Origin: an uncultured archaeon
GTDB taxonomy: Archaea > Asgardarchaeota > Heimdallarchaeia > Heimdallarchaeales > Kariarchaeaceae
Reading direction: 5' to 3'
Assembly (NCBI GenBank): GCA_964645535.1
Contig: CAZYCQ010000028.1
Location: 1 to 19,585 of the forward strand
DNA: 19,585 nucleotides
Both the position numbers and the translations under genes were made by a program. Position 1 is the stretch's first letter. Each line of letters starts with the position of its first letter. Below are positions 6,688 through 18,434 of the stretch, one piece after another. A model generated the notes under the pieces. That model saw only the letters and a list, made by a program, of their open reading frames with translations. It had not been told where the DNA came from and searched no databases.

Positions 6688-7875
6688 TCACACCATATGT
6701 CGTTTAAGGAACCGATCCATTCTAGTTAGACCTTCTTCCAGAATATCAGGGGTTGAGAGATAAACCATTCTGAAATGGTCAGGGACTCCAAAACCAGACC
6801 CATGGACCATAAGAACCTTTTCTTCCTTAAGTAGGTTGATGATGACGTCTTGGTCGGAGGAGAAGTTGAGCATGTCAAGATGCAATTTTGGAAAAATGTA
6901 GAAGGCCGCTTTGGGAATCTGGGTGGTGATTGTCTCCATCTCATTGAATCTTCGAACCACAAGATCTCTGCGTTCTCGAACTTTTCTAATTAGTTCAGGG
7001 AGGTGGGGGGGATTGAGATCAAGACCCATTACGGAGGCATAGGAGATGGGAGTGTTTGGGGAGAGTCGTGTTCTGCACAGTTTTCTTACCCCTTCATAAG
7101 GTTCTTCAATTCTACCTTCTGGATCGATGGCATACATATATGCAGCCCTCCAGCCGGGTGCAAGGTAATTTTTGGAAAATCCATTGAATACCACCACCGG
7201 AACATCTTTGGAGATGGTCGACATCGAGGTAAAGGGATCACCATCAAGCAACATCCTGTCGTAGATTTCATCTGCCACAATTGCAGCGTCGTATTCTCCG
7301 ACAATGTCCTTCAGTTTCCTTAAGGTTGCTTCAGGATAGACTGCACCAGTGGGATTGTTGGGATTGATGACGACCACAAGTTTTGTGGTGTTGTCGATTT
7401 TTGAACGGATATCATCAAGGTCAGGAGCCCAACCCAGCTCTTCAGAACAACGGTAGGCTTCGAGTTTTGCTTGAGATACCGTTGCAATGCTTTGATATGC
7501 GGGATAGGTGGGGGCGGGAACGAGAACCTTATCACCAGGATTCAGGAAGGCAAGAAACAGATAGAGAATTCCTTCACTGACACCCTGAGTGAAAATCACA
7601 TCATCAGGATGTACACCATTGGAGTATTTGGCATTTTCATATTCAGCAATTTTAGTTCTGACGAATTCGTCACCTTCTGATTGGGAGTAGTATCCCCGGT
7701 TGAGGTTGTCCCTGAGAGCATTCTGCATAGTCTGTGGGACATTGAAGTCGAACTTGTTTGGGTCACCTATATTGAAGAAGAGAATTTCATGACCTTCTTT
7801 TTGCATTTGATTAGCGACCTGCTGGACATCCCTTATTGCATATTTCATGGAGCCAACTCTATTGGATATCTGCAT
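6688..7875 (-). CDS. alaA: Class I/II PLP aminotransferase, alanine aminotransferase (AlaA-type)
   Basis: YAIRDV, NIGDP..FDF, INPNNPTG, DEIYD and GFSKNYLAPGWR (PLP lysine). ATG 7875 is the likely start. Confidence 0.85.
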   Translation of the reverse strand: MQISNRVGSMKYAIRDVQQVANQMQKEGHEILFFNIGDPNKFDFNVPQTMQNALRDNLNRGYYSQSEGDEFVRTKIAEYENAKYSNGVHPDDVIFTQGVSEGILYLFLAFLNPGDKVLVPAPTYPAYQSIATVSQAKLEAYRCSEELGWAPDLDDIRSKIDNTTKLVVVINPNNPTGAVYPEATLRKLKDIVGEYDAAIVADEIYDRMLLDGDPFTSMSTISKDVPVVVFNGFSKNYLAPGWRAAYMYAIDPEGRIEEPYEGVRKLCRTRLSPNTPISYASVMGLDLNPPHLPELIRKVRERRDLVVRRFNEMETITTQIPKAAFYIFPKLHLDMLNFSSDQDVIINLLKEEKVLMVHGSGFGVPDHFRMVYLSTPDILEEGLTRMDRFLKRHMV

Positions 7876-8054
7876 CAATCCGTTGTGGCCTTGGTTGTTC
7901 AAAAACCATACGTCAATGGCTACAGGATTTTGCCAAGGATTAGAGACAGCCCGCGTAATTGATGTCTAGATTTTAAAACCATGGATCATAAATTGAATTA
8001 ATCCTGCAGTAAAGGTGACAAAAGTCGACCTGAACTACCATAAGGAGATGATGT

Positions 8055-8231: not shown

Positions 8232-8621
8232 ATGCAGTTCGATCCATTGGCAGATGCATTATCCAAGATTGACACTTACGATCGGGCCGGAAAGAAGGAG
8301 GTTTTCATCAGACCGACAAGCAACCTGATCCAAGACGTGCTCGCCACCCTTCAGAAGGCCGGTTATATTGGAGAATTTGAGCGTGTTGAAGACGCACAGG
8401 GAGGACAATTCCGTGTGCAGCTTCTTGGACGTATCAACAAATGTGCGGTGATCAAACCAAGACAACCGACAAAGGTCACAGAAATCGATGAATTCGAGAA
8501 AAGGTTTCTTCCAGCAGTTAACTTTGGGATCCTTGTTCTGACAACCCCATTGGGCGTAATGACACAAAGGGAAGCCATTGAGAACCATGTCGGTGGAAGA
8601 TTGCTGGCGTATGTCTATTAG
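8232..8621 (+). CDS. rps8: 30S ribosomal protein uS8
   Basis: DPLADALSKI, GYIGEFE, LLGRINKC.VIKPR and GGRLLAYVY. SD GAGGTG upstream. Confidence 0.97.
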   Translation: MQFDPLADALSKIDTYDRAGKKEVFIRPTSNLIQDVLATLQKAGYIGEFERVEDAQGGQFRVQLLGRINKCAVIKPRQPTKVTEIDEFEKRFLPAVNFGILVLTTPLGVMTQREAIENHVGGRLLAYVY

Positions 8622-8630
8622 GTGATTGAA

Positions 8631-9182
8631 ATGTTCGGTAGATTGCAGAAAACCGTAACCATCCCTGAAGATGTGGATTTCAAGCTTGAGGGGTCAGTAA
8701 TCACGGTCAAAGGCCCATTGGGTGAATTGACACGTGATTTTTCCTTTAGTGGATTAATCTTTGAAAGGAAAGGAGATGAATTGGTCATTTCAGTCCTTTT
8801 CCCTAAACGAAAGGAGAAAGCCCTCCTTGGTGCCGTTGAATCCCACGTGAAGAACATGATCCATGGGGTCACAAAAGGCTATAAATACAGTATGAAAATT
8901 GTTTTCTCCCACTTTCCAATCAAGGTGATTCCAGAAGGTTCGCAGGTTAAAATCGAAAACCTGTATGGAGGTCGGAAGCCCCGATATGCAAAAGTGCTTC
9001 CTGGAGTTAAGGTTGAAGTGGACGGAGAAAACGTCTATGTCAGCGGCATTGACAAGGAAAAAGTTGGTCAGACATGTGCCAACATTCAAGAGCTGACTAG
9101 GCTTCGTGGCAAACGCCGTAAGTCACCAAAAACTTTCATGGACGGTATTTTTACATTTGATAGAAGTGGAACCATGCAATAA
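8631..9182 (+). CDS. rpl6: 50S ribosomal protein uL6
   Basis: VKGPLGELTRDF, NMIHGVTKGY, HFPI, GIDKEKVGQTCANI and FMDGIF. SD GGTGA lies 5 nt before ATG 8631. Confidence 0.97.
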   Translation: MFGRLQKTVTIPEDVDFKLEGSVITVKGPLGELTRDFSFSGLIFERKGDELVISVLFPKRKEKALLGAVESHVKNMIHGVTKGYKYSMKIVFSHFPIKVIPEGSQVKIENLYGGRKPRYAKVLPGVKVEVDGENVYVSGIDKEKVGQTCANIQELTRLRGKRRKSPKTFMDGIFTFDRSGTMQ

Positions 9183-9183
9183 T

Positions 9184-9549
9184 TCAATCACTGAAAGGTT
9201 CAATTGATAGTTTAGCTTGATCATCAAGTTCAATTACAACTTCAGATCCACGATTTGCGACATTATAGATGGATCCTTCAGTGGACACCCTGATTTTTGA
9301 GGCAAAGAAGGATGTTCCGGATTCATTCCCTTGGGGTGGTATCGTTTGGTCATCTGTCCAAAAGATTCTGGTTCCCCCTCCTTCTCGTTCAGTTGTGATA
9401 AGGTTTGCTGCCTTCAGGATGGCAATGACATCGTACACCCGTCTTTTGGGTGTCCCAATAATTTCTGCAAGCTCTGCATTGTTGATACCTTCTTCGCCTT
9501 TTTGTTTGATTATTTCAATAGCTCTAGCAGCAATTTCTTTCAGTTTCAT
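9184..9549 (-). CDS. E2F/DP-family winged-helix DNA-binding protein (121 aa)
   Basis: NNAELAEIIGTPKRRVYDVIAILKAANLI...RIFW matches the E2F/DP signature RR(I/V)YD..(N)VL....(L/I)I...I.W. SD GAGGT at 9560-9556 and TATA-like TTTATA at 9626-9621. Confidence 0.75.
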   Translation of the reverse strand: MKLKEIAARAIEIIKQKGEEGINNAELAEIIGTPKRRVYDVIAILKAANLITTEREGGGTRIFWTDDQTIPPQGNESGTSFFASKIRVSTEGSIYNVANRGSEVVIELDDQAKLSIEPFSD

Positions 9550-9685
9550 ACTACAACCTCTTGCCAAATCGATGATAGTTCATCGTTTGTTTTTCTGAAT
9601 TATCTTAGCCCAATCTTCTCTATAAACATTATGCCATTGTTGAGAATGACCTTTTAATTCAGCAGTTTTGGGGTTTGTTCGCGTG

Positions 9686-9709
9686 TACCGCCAAATTTTT
9701 GAATTTGGC
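9686..9709. promoter_or_regulatory. E2F-like site and inverted repeat upstream of the E2F-like gene
   Basis: TACCGCCAAATTT at 9686-9698 contains TTTGGCGG on the minus strand. GCCAAATT-tttg-AATTTGGC at 9690-9709 is an inverted repeat with 8-bp arms. Confidence 0.45.
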
Positions 9710-9813
9710 TCCAAAATTGGAGGGCGATTGTGGTGAAAAAATATTACCAAAGAATATATACTAGTACATTTTGGGATTCCGAAATGATGATTGAATGTTC
9801 GATTCTCGCGATA

Positions 9814-9836
9814 GACGCGCGACATTGTCGCGCGTC
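9814..9836. promoter_or_regulatory. Perfect CGCGCG inverted repeat, candidate operator
   Basis: GACGCGCGACA-T-TGTCGCGCGTC, with 11-bp arms and a 1-nt spacer, in an AT-rich divergent intergenic region. Confidence 0.6.
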
Positions 9837-9892: not shown

Positions 9893-11071
9893 ATGGAGGA
9901 AGCCTATTTTGTTTTGCAGGAAAGGAGAGTTTCACAATTTCTTGGTTCAGTTGTTGGATCGGTGACGGCAGAGATTTTTGCCCAAGCTAAACTATTGCAA
10001 AGGCAAGGAAAATCCATAATCAACTTAGCAATTGGACAACCAGATTTCCTACCACCTAACGAGGTGTTGTCCACTGCTTCCAGAGCGATACTTGAAGGCA
10101 ACGTTCGGTATGCTGAAAGTAAAGGAATTTATGAACTTAGAAAAGCAGTAACAGATTATTATGGTCTTCCCCTTGATGTTGAAAACGAAGTAGTCATTAC
10201 GACAGGTGCAAAAATGGGGATTTTTGCATCGATCTGGACAGTGTGCAATCCAGGAGACAATGTTGTTATCCTTGATCCTTCTTGGGTATCTTATGGTTCC
10301 ATTGTTAAGTCCTTGGGATGTGAACCTCGTTACGTTGAAACAGGTCCGGATTTTGTTTTTGACGAAGAAGATTTGATAAGGAAAATCGATGGAAGGACAA
10401 AAGCAGTCATCGTAAACACCCCTTCAAATCCGACAGGGCAGATAATTGGTCAAACTCAATTTCAGAGGATTTTTGAACTTTGTGCCTCCAACGAGATTCT
10501 TTTGGTCAGCGATGAAATCTACAATGAATACGTCTTTGGATCGAAAAAGTTTACCTCGTTGGGTAGCATTAAGAATTGGAAAGAGCATGGAGTAATTGTC
10601 AATGGATTTTCCAAGACTTTTTCGATGACTGGTTTCAGATTAGGTTATACATTATCCAACGAAGTGATTGCCAAGGAAATCAACAAGGTAATGCAATTGA
10701 CAGCAAGTTGTGCATCACCCTTTGCTCAACTAGCTGGGATTTCTGGTTTGGAGCATATTGATGACATGAGAGAAAGGATTCAAACAATTATGAAGCCCCG
10801 TTTGAAAAGATTGATTGAGTTGGATGAGGAGCTGGAGGGGTTCAAGCTCCTTCCTCCTCAAGGAGCCATGTATGGGTGGTTCCAATTGGATGGAAAGGTG
10901 GAAAGTGCAAAATGGGCGCAACAACTCCTATCGGAAAAAGGGGTAGCTGTGACACCGGGTATCGGTTTTGGTCCACATGGAGAGGGATGGTTCAGAGTTT
11001 CCTTTGCAACAGACCCAAGAGTGTTGGAGGAAGGACTTCGCAAAATAGAGGAATTTGTAAGAGGTATTTAA
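9893..11071 (+). CDS. Class I/II PLP aminotransferase (aspartate aminotransferase-like)
   Basis: IGQPDF, NTPSNPTG, SDEIY, GFSKTFSMTGFRLGY and PG.GFG..GEGWFRVSF. The start could be TTG 9914. Confidence 0.9.
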   Translation: MEEAYFVLQERRVSQFLGSVVGSVTAEIFAQAKLLQRQGKSIINLAIGQPDFLPPNEVLSTASRAILEGNVRYAESKGIYELRKAVTDYYGLPLDVENEVVITTGAKMGIFASIWTVCNPGDNVVILDPSWVSYGSIVKSLGCEPRYVETGPDFVFDEEDLIRKIDGRTKAVIVNTPSNPTGQIIGQTQFQRIFELCASNEILLVSDEIYNEYVFGSKKFTSLGSIKNWKEHGVIVNGFSKTFSMTGFRLGYTLSNEVIAKEINKVMQLTASCASPFAQLAGISGLEHIDDMRERIQTIMKPRLKRLIELDEELEGFKLLPPQGAMYGWFQLDGKVESAKWAQQLLSEKGVAVTPGIGFGPHGEGWFRVSFATDPRVLEEGLRKIEEFVRGI

Positions 11072-14000
11072 TGGGAGACAAAAATTGAAGGACTTCCGAG
11101 TTCTTTGATCAGAGAATCTATATGGAATACCAAGGTTCTGACTTCAGAAGGATTTTGTTCAAGCATTGAATAAAGATTTGTGGCTTTTTCCAAGAAAGCA
11201 GAATTTGAGTCGGAAAGATTGATGATTGTTTGTAGGTAGTCCAAGGCAATTGAACTTATATCATTCTTGCAATTTTCATTGAATTCACAATCCATGAGGT
11301 AATAAAAAAGCCCAATGGCATAGAGGCCTGTGAGCAGTTCTGATGAGAGTTGGTTTGCTTTTGAGGCCTTTCGTTTTAAGGTTTGGAGGAGGGATCGCAA
11401 TTCATGGTATCCCTCAGTAACCATATCCAAGGCCTGATAAAAACGCATCCAATCCCTAAATCGTGCATGGATGGAATATTTCGCTTCAAATTTCTGTTTT
11501 GAATTAATTATTTTATTGAATATACGCTGAAACTGGGGGCGGTTTTCCGGGATATTTTTACCAAAAGTAATAATGAGGATTTGGGCGTATTCAATATGTT
11601 TCCTTTCTTTCGTTCGGATATAAGCAATAATAAGTTCATCTATGGCAAGTTCAATCATTTCAAGTACTCTTTCTTTTGGAAGGGCTTTTGTGGACTCAAT
11701 AATTTTTGGGGCATATTGGATAAAGGTTGCGGCATTTGCGGGAGTAGGATTACTTTCATAATTTTCCACCATTCGAAGGAATGCATCGATCACCATTTCG
11801 GAAAATTGTTTGATCTGATCATTTTCTTTTCCTGAATCGCGGATCAATTCAATTCCTTCGATGGCGAGATGATAAGCCAATTCACCTTCTCCTTTTTGTA
11901 AGAGTTCATGATGGCCGGTTTTGAGTTCGCTCAGAACATCGTCAACACGGTTCTGGCTTTTGTAGATTTCAATTAGATCCTGTTTGATTTGTACAATTTG
12001 TTCAGGATTAAGGTATCCTTGATGGCTTTCTTCCATTGCAAGCTGGGATTTAAGTATTCTTTCCTTAATGTCAAGGTCTGTATTCAGGTCAAGAGAAATT
12101 TGAACCAATTCATGCGCAATTGGAGCCATATTCATTTCAATAAGAGTTTTTTGGAGGTGAAGAAGTTTGTCTACCCATGGAATTTCAGCCATCTGTCGAA
12201 TGGTGAAAAACATTCGGTAAAATGTAACCAAAGATTCGATATCTCTGACTTCAAGAGCCACATCAATCGCTTGATCCATAATTTCGGAGAGTAGATCAAG
12301 ATCTTCGTTTAAGACGCTCATTTCAGTAATATCATAGAATATTTGTATGGAAAACCGTCTTTCTTTAATTAGAATTTCCTTATTAACAGCATTTAATGCG
12401 GATCTGGCCATTGCTTTTAGAATTTGGTGTCGATGCTGAGTGTAATTCAGAAAATTTGCGGCAAAATCAAGTAATTGAAGATAAAGGGAATACTTACCGT
12501 ATTTTCCAGCAGTGATTAGTAACTTTTCAATTATGGGTGAAACACGGTCTGCATCATTACGATGTTCTCGTAGATACTCCATCAGATCATCAATAAGGGA
12601 AGGATCATCTTCTTCTTCTTCAAAGATGAGATCAAGAAGCCTTGCATTGATGATTGCAATCAAGTCTTGAAACTCTTCGAAATGGATCAAATGCTCTTTA
12701 ATTATCTTGAGAACCTGAACCTGTTCAAGAATGGGAACCTTTTCGATATTTTTGGTAATGGCAACCGTAAAAGAAAGAATCAAACGTTTTCGTTTTTCTT
12801 GTGTCAATTTTGTGAAGAGATTTTGAATCTGCTCGATAAGAATCGGACCAGCGGGAGCAACTTCTAGGGCATTGACTAAATAGGGGGTCAGCATATCTGC
12901 AAGACCCTTTTCATTGGTTGTAGGAAGGGAGGTAGCCCATAGCAAAATTTCAAAAATTTCGAGGCTGTGAATCTCCTCATCTATGTTATCAAATTCATGC
13001 AATCGTAGAGTAAGAGCATCTTCTACAAGTCCAACCGTGGCTAGTGCATTAGCAAGAGATACCTTCTCATCCTTGGTTTTTGCAATGTCCACGAAGTCAA
13101 GGTAAATTTCAGCAAGGATATCACGGATTTCATTTTCTGGATTTGGGAAATTAACAGTAAGTATTTCGATGAAGCTTAGAATCTGTTGACTTCCCCATTT
13201 GGAAATTTTGTTCCCAATTTTTTTTATGATTTGAAAGAGACGTTGCTCGATAACAATTTCGATAACTGAACCAATGACCATAAGGGCAATTTCTTTTTCA
13301 TTTTGGGAGTACAAAAGGTCGGCAAGATTGACAAGGTTGACAAGTTCCTCTTGGGAAAATTCCGTTCGAATCGTCATGAAATCATTTATTGCATCTTTTG
13401 TGAGAAATTGGAGAAGATCAGAACCTAAAAGGGATAGCTGTTCAGAGTATTTGGCGATAAAGTTCATATTCGGCATTTCATTTTCGAAGTTTTCCAATTC
13501 ATTCAGCATTGGAATGAAGTCTTGATATCTTTGTTGCCTTTCAGTTTCTGCAAAAGAACTAAGGTAGTCGAGAAGGTAAAATCCAATTCTTGACAATGAA
13601 GGTATGGAAGAGGTGAGTACTTGCTGAAGTCCCTTAATTGGAATCTGTTCACTCTTGAATTCGATTTCCAAGGTATTATAGGTAATCTTTGTGCGTGAAG
13701 CATTGAGTAGAGCAAGAGGATTAAATGCAATCAAATTCCATAGATAGTTGGCAAGTTCAGAAAAGGTTTCAAATGAAAGAGCTGCTTTTGGAAAAGAAAA
13801 GTCCATGATTGAATAGTTATCAGGATCGATTTCTTCCGTTGGAGAAAAGTTAAGCAATTCTTCAACAAGTTCATCCCAATATTTGGAAGTGCTGTGCAAG
13901 AAATTCCAGATAGTTACAATGAACCGTTTCCTGTTTTCATCATCTTCAATGATTGGAATTGATAGGAAAACACCACCTTGCATTTCCACCTTCCAACCGA

Positions 14001-14202
14001 AGAAAAAGATACGACGTTTGTTGATGAATAGGGTGCCATGGTCTTCCCAAGGATCAAAATTTGTTGTGTCGGAAATCCATTCCTCAACAACCGATGTAAA
14101 CATCTGATCCCTCTCCCCTTTCCATAAGACGGAATAATCACCTAGATTTTCAAGATTAGAGGTTCCTTCTTTTAAGGAGGTAAGTAAGCAAAGACTAATC
14201 AT
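11068..14202 (-). CDS. Large hypothetical protein (1044 aa): N-terminal alpha/beta domain followed by a long alpha-helical solenoid-like region
   Basis: Long uninterrupted ORF with L/E/I-rich amphipathic helices and no TM segments. Its ATG overlaps the upstream stop codon (ATGA). Confidence 0.85.
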   Translation of the reverse strand: MISLCLLTSLKEGTSNLENLGDYSVLWKGERDQMFTSVVEEWISDTTNFDPWEDHGTLFINKRRIFFFGWKVEMQGGVFLSIPIIEDDENRKRFIVTIWNFLHSTSKYWDELVEELLNFSPTEEIDPDNYSIMDFSFPKAALSFETFSELANYLWNLIAFNPLALLNASRTKITYNTLEIEFKSEQIPIKGLQQVLTSSIPSLSRIGFYLLDYLSSFAETERQQRYQDFIPMLNELENFENEMPNMNFIAKYSEQLSLLGSDLLQFLTKDAINDFMTIRTEFSQEELVNLVNLADLLYSQNEKEIALMVIGSVIEIVIEQRLFQIIKKIGNKISKWGSQQILSFIEILTVNFPNPENEIRDILAEIYLDFVDIAKTKDEKVSLANALATVGLVEDALTLRLHEFDNIDEEIHSLEIFEILLWATSLPTTNEKGLADMLTPYLVNALEVAPAGPILIEQIQNLFTKLTQEKRKRLILSFTVAITKNIEKVPILEQVQVLKIIKEHLIHFEEFQDLIAIINARLLDLIFEEEEDDPSLIDDLMEYLREHRNDADRVSPIIEKLLITAGKYGKYSLYLQLLDFAANFLNYTQHRHQILKAMARSALNAVNKEILIKERRFSIQIFYDITEMSVLNEDLDLLSEIMDQAIDVALEVRDIESLVTFYRMFFTIRQMAEIPWVDKLLHLQKTLIEMNMAPIAHELVQISLDLNTDLDIKERILKSQLAMEESHQGYLNPEQIVQIKQDLIEIYKSQNRVDDVLSELKTGHHELLQKGEGELAYHLAIEGIELIRDSGKENDQIKQFSEMVIDAFLRMVENYESNPTPANAATFIQYAPKIIESTKALPKERVLEMIELAIDELIIAYIRTKERKHIEYAQILIITFGKNIPENRPQFQRIFNKIINSKQKFEAKYSIHARFRDWMRFYQALDMVTEGYHELRSLLQTLKRKASKANQLSSELLTGLYAIGLFYYLMDCEFNENCKNDISSIALDYLQTIINLSDSNSAFLEKATNLYSMLEQNPSEVRTLVFHIDSLIKELGSPSIFVSH

Positions 14203-14555
14203 TTGGTTCCCTCCAGTTCAAGGATGCTCTCCATTTTGATGACAAGATCCTCATAGTACTCCAATAACCAAAGACTAATGTCATTTTCCTCAACGAATGG
14301 TGTTGAAATTTTTGTAATGTGGTCTTTGATTGCACCATGGATTTGTGAATCTTCTATGAAATTAACTTCTGACCAAATAGAAGATGCAAATGACCCTACG
14401 AGTGGCTCATTGTCAAGTATCTGTTCAATTTGGATTGCCAATTCGGTGAATCGATCTTTAGTGGATTGGAGTTCCATTTCTACTTTTTTTCTTGGTTGTT
14501 TGAATACAGGCTTTTTTCTGCGAAAGAAGTTTAACCGAATGCCGAACAGGTTCAT
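14199..14555 (-). CDS. Small helical hypothetical protein with a hydrophobic/basic N-terminus
   Basis: Translationally coupled to the 1044-aa gene. AAAATTATAA at 14590-14581 suggests a leaderless ATG at 14555 (or 14561) rather than 14633. Confidence 0.7.
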   Translation of the reverse strand: MNLFGIRLNFFRRKKPVFKQPRKKVEMELQSTKDRFTELAIQIEQILDNEPLVGSFASSIWSEVNFIEDSQIHGAIKDHITKISTPFVEENDISLWLLEYYEDLVIKMESILELEGTK

Positions 14556-14611
14556 CTTCATCCAATATGGCAACAGCACCTTATAATTTTGTGCGAAACT
14601 TAATGGAATAA

Positions 14612-15070
14612 TTAGAGTTCCGGTTGATCCCAAGTGGCATATTGTTCAACCCATTGGCGAACCTTCTGTTTGAAACCTTCTGGATCTTCTTTCATCATTT
14701 TGGCAGCTCCTGAATGAAGAGGGTCGTCAGGATTAGGATTACTCAACAAAAATCTAAGGCTTTCGACTACATCAACCAAATTGTTGGCAGGAGTCCAATC
14801 TTTGCCTAGGATCCCAATGCAAATTCGATCCTTGAAGAAATTCGGATGGAATATTTGTGTCTTTGTTTTTACAATAGGGGGTTTGAATGGGTATTCTCTA
14901 GGAATTTGGATCTCAAACACAAATACCCCATCACTGTATAGACCCGTTCCAATAATAAATCCCTTCCATCTTGTAATATCATTGTCAATTGGTTCAAAAC
15001 TTGGTTCCTCTCTTTTCATTTCATCGGCTTCGATAGCTAATCTGGCCCAGTAATCATCTTCTGGAAGTAT
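14612..15070 (-). CDS. Ubiquitin-conjugating enzyme E2, apparent ATA start
   Basis: W.G.I.G...Y..G.F, PREYPFKPP, FHPN, catalytic Cys in RICIGIL, WTPA and PNPDDPL. The frame extends upstream of ATG 15019 as ILPEDDYWARLAIEADEM (E2 helix 1) up to TAG 15079-15077. Confidence 0.93.
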   Translation of the reverse strand: MLPEDDYWARLAIEADEMKREEPSFEPIDNDITRWKGFIIGTGLYSDGVFVFEIQIPREYPFKPPIVKTKTQIFHPNFFKDRICIGILGKDWTPANNLVDVVESLRFLLSNPNPDDPLHSGAAKMMKEDPEGFKQKVRQWVEQYATWDQPEL

Positions 15071-15245: not shown

Positions 15246-15932
15246 GTGAAAGGCAAAACCATTACACTTCTAATTTTTATCTTGTGCTTGTCCTTAACCT
15301 CAATCAATGCATTTGAGACCGATCCGACTAAAGTATCAGTCATATCAATTCATGACGGGAAGACCCTTGGTAGGGAACTTGTTCCAGGGATATTGGTAAA
15401 TGTAACTGTTTTGGTCAAAAATTTCTCCAACGATACAATGAGAAATGTCAACATCAGCCAATCCCTTCCAGAAGATCTTGAACTTGTCCTTTCACCATTC
15501 GGAAGCGTTAACTCAGAGATTAATATAACAGAACCAACAGATATTGAAATGCCTACAGGGGAAATCCTTAGGATAAATTCAGGATATGCAAATCGTTCTT
15601 ATTTCACTTTCAATTTCGATTCCTTGATAAATGGATCTGGAATTGCATTTGTTTACTCCATCAATGCAACAAGGGACAAGGTTTTTGACATAGATAGTCT
15701 TCAGGTCGACTACCTTGATCATTGGGGAGATCCACATACAGCCAATGGAAACCGTATCTCCTTGGAATTTTTCCCTCCAGAAGATAAGACAGATGATGAC
15801 CTCTATTATCCAAAATTTGAGGTAGGAGAAGTAGATTGGTTCTTGATAGTTGGCATAGGAGTTGGGGTTGTTTTGGGTGTCAGTATCCTTTCTGCATTAG
15901 TCTATTTCAGAAAGCCTTTTTCGGTGCATTAA
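15246..15932 (+). CDS. Type I membrane glycoprotein, TRAP-beta (SSR2)/BatD-DUF11-like Ig-fold protein
   Basis: Signal peptide; LV.G..VNVTV.VKN......NV.I...LPEDLELV; F.SL..GS...F.Y.I.....F.....V.Y; 8 sequons; C-terminal TM helix followed by RK. AGGAG SD before the GTG start. Confidence 0.6.
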   Translation: MKGKTITLLIFILCLSLTSINAFETDPTKVSVISIHDGKTLGRELVPGILVNVTVLVKNFSNDTMRNVNISQSLPEDLELVLSPFGSVNSEINITEPTDIEMPTGEILRINSGYANRSYFTFNFDSLINGSGIAFVYSINATRDKVFDIDSLQVDYLDHWGDPHTANGNRISLEFFPPEDKTDDDLYYPKFEVGEVDWFLIVGIGVGVVLGVSILSALVYFRKPFSVH

Positions 15933-15982
15933 CTACGAACAAAAACGACAACATATATTTCCCTCCTTCTAAATCGAATGTT

Positions 15983-16930
15983 ATGGAATCATTGAGAAAA
16001 GTTGCAGATGACATTATTTCGCTTACCATTCAGGGAGCAACGAATATTGCAATAGAGGGAGTAAAAGCAGTTGTTGATTATGGAAATTCTTTGCCTTCCA
16101 ACCTTTCAGAAGATGAATTTATCGCAAAAATAAAGGAAGCCGAACAGATTATTCGAAAGACACGGCCAACGGAACCAGCCATGCAAAATGGTCTAAAGTT
16201 ACTGGAGTATGAGTTGAAAAGAAATACGGGGAATGGAACAGAAATGTTGCAAATGGCGATTTCAGAAGCAGCAGAATATTACATTTCATTATTGAAGTCA
16301 ACCAAACAACAGATTATTAACTATGGGGCAAGCCTAATTCAAGACGGATATACAGTAATGACCCATTGTCATTCATCACTTTCTTCAGAAACAATCATTA
16401 AAGCATTTAAGGATGGGAAGGACATTAGAGCTATCGCAACAGAAACACGTCCAAGATATCAGGGGAGAAAAACAGCAGTTGAACTGAGTGAAGCAGGGAT
16501 TCCTACAACGCAAGTAGTGGATTCTGCCATGAGGTGGGTAATGAGGAAAATGAATGTGGATATGGTCATTATCGGAATGGATGCAGTAACCTCGTTAGGG
16601 ACAGTCATCAATAAGATTGGCTCTAGACTTCTTGCCCTTGCAGCCAAAGAGGCAGATGTACCTTTCTTCGTTTCGGGATCCCTCTTGAAATTTGACAGTG
16701 ATACAATGTTTGGAAAAAGAACCGAGATTGAAGAAAGAGATATCATTGAAATCACCAAGGATTGGGAGAACGCTCCGAAAAATCTGACAATATTGAATCC
16801 TGCCTTTGAATCCGTTTCAAGAGACTATATTGATGGATTAATTACGGAACAAGGCATTTTTGCCCCAGAATTGGTATATAAATTGGTAAAGGAAAAGTAT
16901 CCGTTCATGGTTGAGGAAACTACTCTATAG
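15983..16930 (+). CDS. Ribose-1,5-bisphosphate isomerase (eIF2B alpha/beta/delta family)
   Basis: IQGATNIA, RPTEP, THCHS (catalytic Cys), ETRP.YQG, GMDAV (catalytic Asp), NKIGS and NPAFE. It lies next to AMP phosphorylase. Confidence 0.92.
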   Translation: MESLRKVADDIISLTIQGATNIAIEGVKAVVDYGNSLPSNLSEDEFIAKIKEAEQIIRKTRPTEPAMQNGLKLLEYELKRNTGNGTEMLQMAISEAAEYYISLLKSTKQQIINYGASLIQDGYTVMTHCHSSLSSETIIKAFKDGKDIRAIATETRPRYQGRKTAVELSEAGIPTTQVVDSAMRWVMRKMNVDMVIIGMDAVTSLGTVINKIGSRLLALAAKEADVPFFVSGSLLKFDSDTMFGKRTEIEERDIIEITKDWENAPKNLTILNPAFESVSRDYIDGLITEQGIFAPELVYKLVKEKYPFMVEETTL

Positions 16931-18434
16931 GTGAAGCAGAAACCCTTTCAATTACCATTCCCTCAAGCTTATACATCTGTGAATTATTGGCAACATTCAA
17001 GGCTCGTTCAAGATGAGATTCCTTTGTTGCATGGATACGGAGTAAGGGAGTTCCCTTAGTTACAAATTCACCGGCCTTGTGGAGTAGATACATTCCAGCT
17101 TTCTTGTTAACAGGGCAGCCAAGTTCTCTTGCAATCTTCTTGATTGCAGTATTGGAAATATGGGATATATATCCATCAGCATAAGCTTTCACTTCAGCAG
17201 TGTATTGCCCTATTTCTATGTCTTCAGGCATTACTTTGGCGTTGCCGCCTTGAGCATCAATGATTTCCCGCATCTTTGCAAGAGCTTTTCCACTTCTCAG
17301 GATGTCATCGGCCATCCGCGCACCTTCCCCTTTTGGTACAAGTTTTGCCATTTCAAGAAGAATTCCAGCAAGCTCAACAGATTTTTCATGAACACTTCTC
17401 GGTCCATTTCCCATAAGAGTTTCCAATGCTTCTTTTGCCTCAAGAGCAGGCCCTATTGCATGACCTACAGGTTGATCAGCATAAGTAAGAGCACAATCAA
17501 CCTCTATTCCAACCTTTCGACCAATCTCCACAAACTTATGAGCAAGAGCCTTTGCGGTGGTTCTTGTTTCAAGTTTGGTTCCAGGACCAGTGGGCATGTC
17601 AAGTACTAGATGTTTAACACCAGTTGCCAATTTCTTTGAAAGAATGGAAGCAATAATGATGGATTCAGGATCTAGTCCCAATGGTCGTTCAATTCTTGAA
17701 ATAATTTTTGAATCTACGGGAGCTAAGTTCAAATGACCACCCCAAACAATCATGCCTCTTGTTTTTGGTGCAATTTCCTGTATTTCCTCTGCGGTGAAAT
17801 CAACATTTGCAAGCACTTCCATAGTGTCGGCAGTTCCTGATGGGGAAGTGATCGCCCTGCTACTTGTTTTCGGAATAAGAAGTCCTGCGGCAGCAACAAT
17901 CGGAACGATTACAAGCGACACCTTGTTTCCAGCAATTCCTCCAACAGAATGTTTATCATAAACAGGTTCATTGAAAGAAAGTTGTGTTCCATGATAGGCA
18001 AAACCTTTGGTAAGGTTTACCGTTTCCTCATCACTCAGATTTTCATATTGGATGGCAAGGGTAAATGCAGCCATTTCAAGGTCAGTAAGGTTCTCATTGT
18101 AGATGTCATCTAGAATTACTCTAATATCATCTCCTGACCAAACATGACGGTCATATTTCTTCATTATGACATCAACACTTTTTGGACGGGCACGAGGGGC
18201 TATACTTACAGGCTTTCTTTTCTTTACGCCCAATTGCTTTGCAAGGGTAGGAGGAAACCCAATTTCTCCTTTCTGAACAAGGGTTTCAGAGAAGACAACA
18301 TTTACAAGAAGCCGTTTCTGGGCAACACTTACTTGTGCCATCATTGTTGTCGGATCCCTAGGGTCTCCATCAGATGGATTTAAAACTACCAATCGATCCG
18401 TTGTATCAAAATTCTCTAATATTTTTCCTTTCAT
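16920..18434 (-). CDS. deoA: AMP phosphorylase (archaeal thymidine phosphorylase family)
   Basis: Extra N-terminal domain, DKHSVGG..GNK, KTSSRAITSPSGTAD, SILSKK and GPALEA. 504 aa. Confidence 0.95.
   Translation of the reverse strand: MKGKILENFDTTDRLVVLNPSDGDPRDPTTMMAQVSVAQKRLLVNVVFSETLVQKGEIGFPPTLAKQLGVKKRKPVSIAPRARPKSVDVIMKKYDRHVWSGDDIRVILDDIYNENLTDLEMAAFTLAIQYENLSDEETVNLTKGFAYHGTQLSFNEPVYDKHSVGGIAGNKVSLVIVPIVAAAGLLIPKTSSRAITSPSGTADTMEVLANVDFTAEEIQEIAPKTRGMIVWGGHLNLAPVDSKIISRIERPLGLDPESIIIASILSKKLATGVKHLVLDMPTGPGTKLETRTTAKALAHKFVEIGRKVGIEVDCALTYADQPVGHAIGPALEAKEALETLMGNGPRSVHEKSVELAGILLEMAKLVPKGEGARMADDILRSGKALAKMREIIDAQGGNAKVMPEDIEIGQYTAEVKAYADGYISHISNTAIKKIARELGCPVNKKAGMYLLHKAGEFVTKGTPLLRIHATKESHLERALNVANNSQMYKLEGMVIERVSASPIE

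Follow-up and report, generated by a model that had tools for sequence, protein, structure and literature searches.

Gene and locus

The window, by which we mean the whole 19,585-nt stretch of DNA analysed here, carries on its minus strand a gene for a 121-residue E2F/DP-like protein (P0001), set between a pair of ribosomal protein genes and a divergently oriented aminotransferase gene. The features to which the text refers are these:

9184..9549, minus strand: coding sequence of the 121-aa E2F/DP-like protein, stop codon included (open reading frame and translation)
9358..9549, minus strand: winged-helix DNA-binding domain, residues 1-64 (Pfam E2F_TDP; AlphaFold2 model)
9430..9444, minus strand: codons of the RRxYD motif, R36-R37-V38-Y39-D40, invariant in orthologues
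9295..9357, minus strand: variable, probably flexible linker, residues 65-85, at the position of the coiled coil in longer Asgard forms
9187..9294, minus strand: residues 86-121, a beta domain of four strands and a candidate for self-association (conservation, fold, hhalign)
9619..9630, minus strand: AATGTTTATAGA, TATA-box-like, about 70 nt upstream of the ATG, near-identical in four congeners
9688..9709, minus strand: TTTGGCGG (9688-9695) within the inverted repeat GCCAAATT-N4-AATTTGGC (9690-9709); the word is kept in three of four congeners
9814..9836, no strand assigned: GACGCGCGACA-W-TGTCGCGCGTC, a perfect palindrome of 23 bp that has two CGCGCG cores and lies between the E2F-like and aminotransferase genes; candidate operator
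9893..11071, plus strand: class I/II aminotransferase (Aminotran_1_2), divergent neighbour and candidate co-regulated target

The reading frame runs from an ATG at 9549 to a stop codon at 9184-9186, and its 121-residue translation contains the three stretches singled out in the initial annotation, namely KRRVYDVIAILKAANLI at residues 35-51, IFW at 62-64 and KIRVSTEGSIYNV at 84-96. We assign the start to ATG 9549 because the MKL/MRL of all 22 aligned homologues begins there and because a Shine-Dalgarno-like GAGG lies at 9557-9560, 8-11 nt upstream; the same two observations rule out an in-frame TTG at 9567. In a six-frame search of the 3.6-Mb genome (completeness 89%) this gene gave the single E2F_TDP match, at 37.4 bits, and the stretch is recorded only in DNA runs of one hot-spring metagenome study, from which the DNA comes, and in no RNA run. 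An 81-aa ORF upstream (9580-9825, minus strand) was rejected as a gene on account of non-triplet indels and merely block-wise conservation in the aligned congeners.

The E2F-like gene is convergent with the genes for S8 (8232-8621) and L6 (8622-9182), the stop codons lying one base apart. In archaea S8-L6 is usually followed by L32e-L19e-L18-S5; the S8-L6 pair of the window (8232-9182, plus strand) lacks this continuation, and the arrangement is kept in three of four congeners. On the other side, the aminotransferase at 9893-11071 matches Pfam Aminotran_1_2 with 228 bits and is closest to archaeal aspartate aminotransferase (NCBIfam asp_aminotase_Arch, 294 bits, below that model's cut-off of 550). 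It adjoins the E2F-like gene in two genera and in three arrangements, being divergent in three congeners, in tandem upstream in a fourth, and in tandem directly downstream in another genus; in one further genus (L021) it is not beside the orthologue. A paralogous class I/II aminotransferase at 6688-7902 (minus strand) stands on the far side of S8, so that two such genes, one alanine-aminotransferase-like and the other aspartate-aminotransferase-like, flank the S8-L6-E2F-like block, and this order is kept in congeners L014 and L016.

Other genes of the window bear on its host and its annotation. An E2 ubiquitin-conjugating enzyme, typical of Asgard genomes, is encoded at 14612-15019 (minus strand; UQ_con, 116 bits) and agrees with an Asgard host. 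A 144-aa ORF (14199-14633) and a 1044-aa ORF (11068-14202), both without a Pfam family at E 1e-5, form a run with it on the same strand, possibly a ubiquitin-system cluster of Asgard type whose other members are uncharacterised. An IF-2B-family protein of the ribose-1,5-bisphosphate isomerase or MtnA type (15836-16930, plus strand) adjoins a Glycos_transf_3 and PYNP_C protein of the AMP or thymidine phosphorylase type (16920-18434, minus strand), a pairing that recalls the archaeal AMP salvage pathway. Finally, a ResIII/DEAD helicase N-terminal part (280 aa, 1811-2653) and a DUF3427 ORF (379 aa, 171-1310) lie about 500 bp apart on the minus strand and may be one DUF3427-type helicase gene split by a frameshift or insertion.

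The winged-helix domain

The initial annotation had proposed a minimal prokaryotic relative of E2F and DP, on the evidence of an RRxYD motif and a downstream IFW. Residues 3-55 match Pfam E2F_TDP (PF02319) at 36.4 bits against a cut-off of 25.7 (E 4e-9), and every other winged-helix family falls under its own Pfam cut-off for this protein: TrmB, the second Pfam match, reaches 18.3 bits (cut-off 25.6), Rrf2 17.6 (cut-off 30) and MarR_2 14.3 (cut-off 27), while the ArsR-type NCBIfam model HTH_metalloreg reaches 16.8 (cut-off 55). In the comparison of E2F_TDP with TrmB, ArsR and MarR profiles, E2F_TDP alone is thus above cut-off. The AlphaFold2 model has a mean pLDDT of 85, with the winged-helix blocks at 84-93, and places three helices at residues 3-20, 24-31 and 35-47, followed by wing strands at 51-56 and 59-64. 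The beta-hairpin wing (residues 51-64) terminates in W64, and the RRVYD sequence is placed at the start of helix 3.

Conservation is concentrated on the same residues. Among 22 homologues, obtained by a word-indexed search at 47-93% identity and spanning 43-93% identity in their alignment, K35, R36, R37, Y39, D40 and W64 are invariant. When the comparison is widened to an 80-sequence set that includes eukaryotic E2Fs, R36, R37 and D40 are still invariant and Y39 and W64 are at least 90% conserved. The annotation had named loss of RRxYD in orthologues as evidence against itself; the motif is retained in all 22, and invariance over such a range of identity argues that it is not a chance match. 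In eukaryotic E2F and DP proteins the invariant RRxYD touches the GCGC core of the site, as stated in the passage of Medina et al. 2016 (PMC4862756) that cites Zheng et al. 1999.

Searches in the reverse direction also arrive at E2F. A precomputed PF02319 domain is present in all 22 homologues, the named ones of which come from Heimdall-group or Kariarchaeaceae MAGs. A profile of the 22 proteins, run exhaustively against 1.84 billion representatives, returned only 79 matches, and Pfam finds E2F_TDP in 79 of the 80 proteins scanned (the matches plus the query), with E2F_CC-MB as well in four. The longer matches are eukaryote-type E2Fs, including tandem-domain E2F7/8-like proteins and one sequence (P0070) with the UniRef name E2F2 of the bird Buteo japonicus. 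Against all PDB sequences the orthologue profile ranks E2F8 first (4yo2, 9e-5) and E2F4 second (1cf7_A, 0.023), with DP2 at 0.48. The protein and the eukaryotic E2F/DP DNA-binding domain (1CF7, 4YO2) therefore have in common the winged helix, the RRxYD motif and the tryptophan at the wing end, and profile searches detect each from the other. With E2F_TDP above cut-off, RRxYD invariant and the reverse search finding E2F_TDP, the proposal of a prokaryotic E2F/DP relative holds up well, and we regard the N-terminal domain as very probably a DNA-binding domain of the E2F/DP family.

Linker and C-terminal domain

Downstream of the wing, residues 65-85 vary in sequence and length among orthologues and are predicted to be disordered; in the AlphaFold2 model residues 69-77 have pLDDT below 50 and no helix is predicted. 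The protein then ends at residue 121, straight after the beta domain. The earlier description of a protein with neither a coiled coil nor an Rb-binding tail is accurate on both points.

The C-terminal domain has its own pattern of conservation, with T90, G92, I94, N99, G101, V104, I106 and E117 invariant among the 22 homologues. Folded alone from a 33-sequence alignment, it forms four strands with a pLDDT of 93.8. Comparison by hhalign finds residues 86-121 homologous to the C-terminal domain of longer Asgard forms (probability 97%, E 1e-10, 51 columns), which argues that the Asgard family has a conserved second domain. A look-up of residues 78-121 in the ESM Atlas gave no usable feature match, only short beta-meander ones.

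The beta-rich C-terminus had been suggested to recall weakly the marked box of E2F. Its beta-rich character is borne out by the four strands. Likeness to the eukaryotic coiled-coil/marked-box module (PF16421, PF08781; 2AZE, 5TUU) is only faint: hhalign against eukaryotic CC-MB matched the coiled coil alone, at a probability of 2.9%, with a eukaryotic alignment that was thin because the homologue search gave almost only bird E2F2. The E2F/DP interpretation as a whole thus stands for the DNA-binding domain, and the marked-box part of it is unproven, its scores not being significant.

One possible function of the beta domain is self-association. A lone four-strand sheet without a hydrophobic core of its own, at the position that the dimerisation domain occupies in E2F and DP, suggests, on the shape and conservation of the domain, that two copies may pair. 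Homodimer prediction with controls gave 0.34 against a mark of 0.42 and carries no weight either way. We consider the question of self-association through the beta domain to be evenly balanced.

Distribution and comparison with known forms

The Asgard E2F/DP-like family is already known, as are orthologues from the same genus, and the 121-aa gene represents no new type of system. Eme et al. 2023 (Nature 618:992, PMC10307638, Suppl. 4.1.5) report E2F/DP in most Asgard groups and its absence from other archaea, with a highly conserved DNA-binding domain that includes the base-contact residues, and Asgard E2F homologues are mentioned in a 2024 review (PMC7617429). Two of our homologues occur letter for letter in the ESP table of Eme et al. 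2023: P0003 (76% identical), listed under Heimdallarchaeaceae_S012_26 and located on contig WAKA01000204, whose genome shares its genus with the window, and P0008 (64% identical). The proteins entered there as 'E2F/DP, PF02319' (arCOG02749) have the same family, architecture and RRxYD domain as the protein described here. In our own survey of 301 genomes of the phylum, 122 had E2F_TDP above its cut-off, representing 35 of 70 genera, and none of 14 control genomes did.

Two forms of the protein can be distinguished among Asgard archaea. Long forms of about 165-200 aa (for example P0041, L003 and L008) occur in the Loki, Thor and Hel groups, and have the winged helix and the C-terminal beta domain in common with the short form. 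They differ in what joins the two, which is a 40-50-residue coiled coil in the long forms, with LQVQVAELKEQLR-type heptads at the linker position ahead of the beta-rich end, and an unstructured linker of about 20 residues in the Heimdall-group form. A profile of the long-form coiled coil and beta region returned only generic coiled coils from the PDB sequences. In contrast to the account of Eme et al. 2023, the second half of the protein appears here as a conserved domain common to the short and long Asgard forms.

The differences from eukaryotic E2F and DP are larger. The archaeal protein has about 121 aa where those have 300-900 aa, and it is without a leucine zipper, a recognisable marked box or a transactivation/Rb-binding tail. 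Unlike the E2F-DP heterodimer, it is the product of the one E2F_TDP gene in its 89%-complete genome. Two short E2F-like paralogues occur together in several other genomes of the family (L017-L024; G145, G178, G232, G247), one of the type 'INNAELA...VIAILKAA' and the other of the type 'VTTAELA...VKAIMKAA', with a third, divergent type in L024; heterodimers are possible in principle where two short paralogues coexist.

Upstream DNA elements

Alignment of four congeneric genomes revealed four conserved blocks in otherwise diverged sequence upstream of the gene: the TATA-like AATGTTTATAGA, a region with an E2F-type word, a T-rich block and the palindrome. The first of these is likely the promoter of the E2F-like gene. 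A scan of the window with Rfam gave no match, which argues that the conserved intergenic blocks are no known RNA.

The second block, at -160 to -140, reads GAGCCAAA...AATTTGGCGG(G) in the congeners, and its version in the window is the TTTGGCGG at 9688-9695. GAGCCAAA...TTTGGCGG(G) is kept in three of the four congeneric genomes and the fourth has AAGGCGGG. As a pattern fixed a priori we took the eukaryotic consensus TTTSSCGS and searched for it in the 300 bp that precede the gene at 11 non-redundant short-form loci. It is present at 4 of the 11 against an expectation of 0.45, and 4 of 2000 shuffles attained this count. Each of the four occurrences is TTTGGCGG on the coding strand, for which 0.05 were expected and which 0 of 2000 shuffles reached. 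The word is missing upstream of the other 7 short-form loci and of all 10 long-form loci; among the loci compared it precedes short forms only. Genome-wide, TTTGGCGG and related words show no intergenic enrichment, as measured with crude ORF calls in which 9580-9825 is miscalled as a gene. The strict form TTTSSCGC has two matches in the window, both intragenic and equal to chance expectation, and a de novo search for enriched 7-mers in 21 non-redundant upstream regions put TTTTTCG and CGATTTT-type words on top, not convincingly.

The palindrome is the rarer element. Its two CGCGCG hexamers are 2 of only 21 in the 3.6-Mb genome, and its 17-bp core occurs once per genome, at the same locus, in all four genomes of the genus; eight other genomes of the family lack it, and it is genus-specific. 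Elsewhere in the genome, the neighbours of non-coding CGCGCG sites are genes for an aldo-keto reductase, a Lys-tRNA synthetase and an ABC transporter, besides ORFs that have no family, and no regulon is apparent from them. Contig C17 carries at 28395-28415 the near-perfect palindromic E2F-type word AAAGCGCGCGCTTTTCCC (cf. TTTSGCGCSAAA), which stands 39 bp ahead of a 129-aa ORF that has no Pfam family and just after a class-I lysyl-tRNA synthetase gene. In the literature searched we found neither the palindrome nor the TTTGGCGG word nor the linkage to the aminotransferase gene. What connects the protein to these upstream elements is circumstantial evidence, and they could serve another factor.

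Possible explanations for the function of the protein

The explanation that in our view accounts best for these observations, and that we consider rather probable as a whole, is that the 121-aa protein is an Asgard transcription factor of the E2F/DP family that associates with itself and acts locally. Its parts carry different weight. That the protein is a sequence-specific DNA-binding regulator we take to be likely. The RRVYD helix would read GCGC-core DNA as in E2F and DP; binding to such cores (TTTSSCGC-type sites) is predicted from the motif, and the conserved TTTGGCGG word and CGCGCG palindrome upstream of the gene are circumstantial indications of it. The beta domain would join two copies of the protein, and the flexible linkers would let both heads reach inverted half-sites. 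The protein would act on two targets at its own locus, the TTTGGCGG inverted repeat and the CGCGCG palindrome that is present in a single copy, and through them would regulate itself and probably also the neighbouring aspartate-aminotransferase-like gene, in the manner of a simple prokaryotic local regulator. This genome shows neither an Rb-type partner nor a sign of a replication or division regulon. The conserved upstream elements, the single-copy palindrome, the TTTGGCGG word and the adjacency of the aminotransferase together suggest such auto- or local regulation, and we put it forward tentatively, at slightly less than an even call.

A second hypothesis is that the protein does here what E2F does in eukaryotes, regulating the cell cycle by turning on replication and division genes through E2F sites. 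Its DNA-binding domain and base-contacting motif are those of E2F and DP, and the possibility has been raised for Asgard archaea in a review (PMC7617429). In this genome, however, no TTTSSCGS, SGCGCS or CGCGCG lies within 350 bp upstream of three orc1/cdc6 genes, the mcm gene or two ftsZ/tubulin genes, and the gene for the large subunit of RNR has one GGCGCC only, at -260. Strong sites are limited to the locus of the E2F-like gene itself. Moreover, RB_A, E2F_CC-MB and the DP C-terminal domain were not found in the 89%-complete genome, the search for RB_A being a weak one, as the control genomes are without the family too. Taken with the unenriched TTTGGCGG word and the uninformative neighbours of the CGCGCG sites, these results make a cell-cycle E2F an improbable reading for this genome. 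The MCM gene itself (contig C2, 68139-71339, plus strand) has a feature of separate interest: it encodes 1067 aa, and its MCM ATPase domain is matched as two segments separated by about 1.1 kb within a single open frame, a split that suggests an intein.

A third hypothesis would make the protein an ordinary TrmB-, MarR- or ArsR-type winged-helix regulator in which RRxYD arose by chance. The initial annotation had said that generic winged-helix families as best profile or structural hits would count against E2F/DP, and the two kinds of search part ways here: profiles lead to E2F, and structure searches with the full model (Foldseek, VIA-align) rank ArsR, MarR, Rrf2 and Z-alpha first. The latter yield generic winged-helix folds only and do not discriminate between families. 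TrmB is moreover the second Pfam match and is matched by 20 of the 80 related proteins, the two families being neighbours. Against this stand the Pfam and NCBIfam scores given above, in which E2F_TDP passes its cut-off and TrmB, MarR_2 and the ArsR-type model do not, a reverse search of 1.84e9 proteins that gave E2F_TDP proteins almost exclusively, and a motif invariant over the whole range of orthologues, so that this hypothesis is very hard to sustain.

The structures nearest to the winged helix include the Z-alpha (Z-DNA-binding) domains of ADAR1, PKZ and poxvirus E3, which also appear as weak sequence matches of the family profile, and the palindrome holds (CG)3 tracts. That the protein recognises nucleic acids by their structure and not as a promoter-specific regulator, for example alternating CG tracts in the manner of Z-alpha, or that it is a general chromatin protein, is nevertheless most improbable: Pfam z-alpha is unmatched, the sequence similarity to Z-alpha is far weaker than that to E2F8 and E2F4, the structural scores are tied with those of dozens of ordinary winged-helix regulators, and 21 CGCGCG sites in a genome are little substrate for a general binder.

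Implications for the E2F/DP family

Set against the literature searched, the additions made here are modest: the C-terminal domain common to the Asgard forms, the Heimdall variant without a coiled coil, and the single-copy palindrome together with the TTTGGCGG word. A bolder extension, which we regard as unlikely at present, would derive the eukaryotic E2F-DP marked box from the beta domain of the Asgard E2F/DP-like proteins, as its homodimeric ancestor, in a factor that controls itself through GCGC sites. If this were true, the plan of a DNA-binding domain, a coiled coil in some forms and a beta dimerisation module would be older than eukaryotes, which would contradict the published statement that archaeal E2F/DP proteins are without a dimerisation domain. 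The Heimdall-group form would then be a variant that lacks the coiled coil, its homodimer reading TTTGGCGG and the CGCGCG palindrome and controlling its own promoter and the adjoining gene of amino-acid metabolism.

In eukaryotes the G1-S transition has E2F/DP as its master switch, and no prokaryotes are more closely related to eukaryotes than the Asgard archaea. For this reason the archaeal homologues offer the only view of the role that E2F/DP had before Rb, cyclins and CDKs. That no E2F-type sites precede the replication and division genes of this genome argues that the ancestral job, at least here, was local regulation and not control of the cell cycle.
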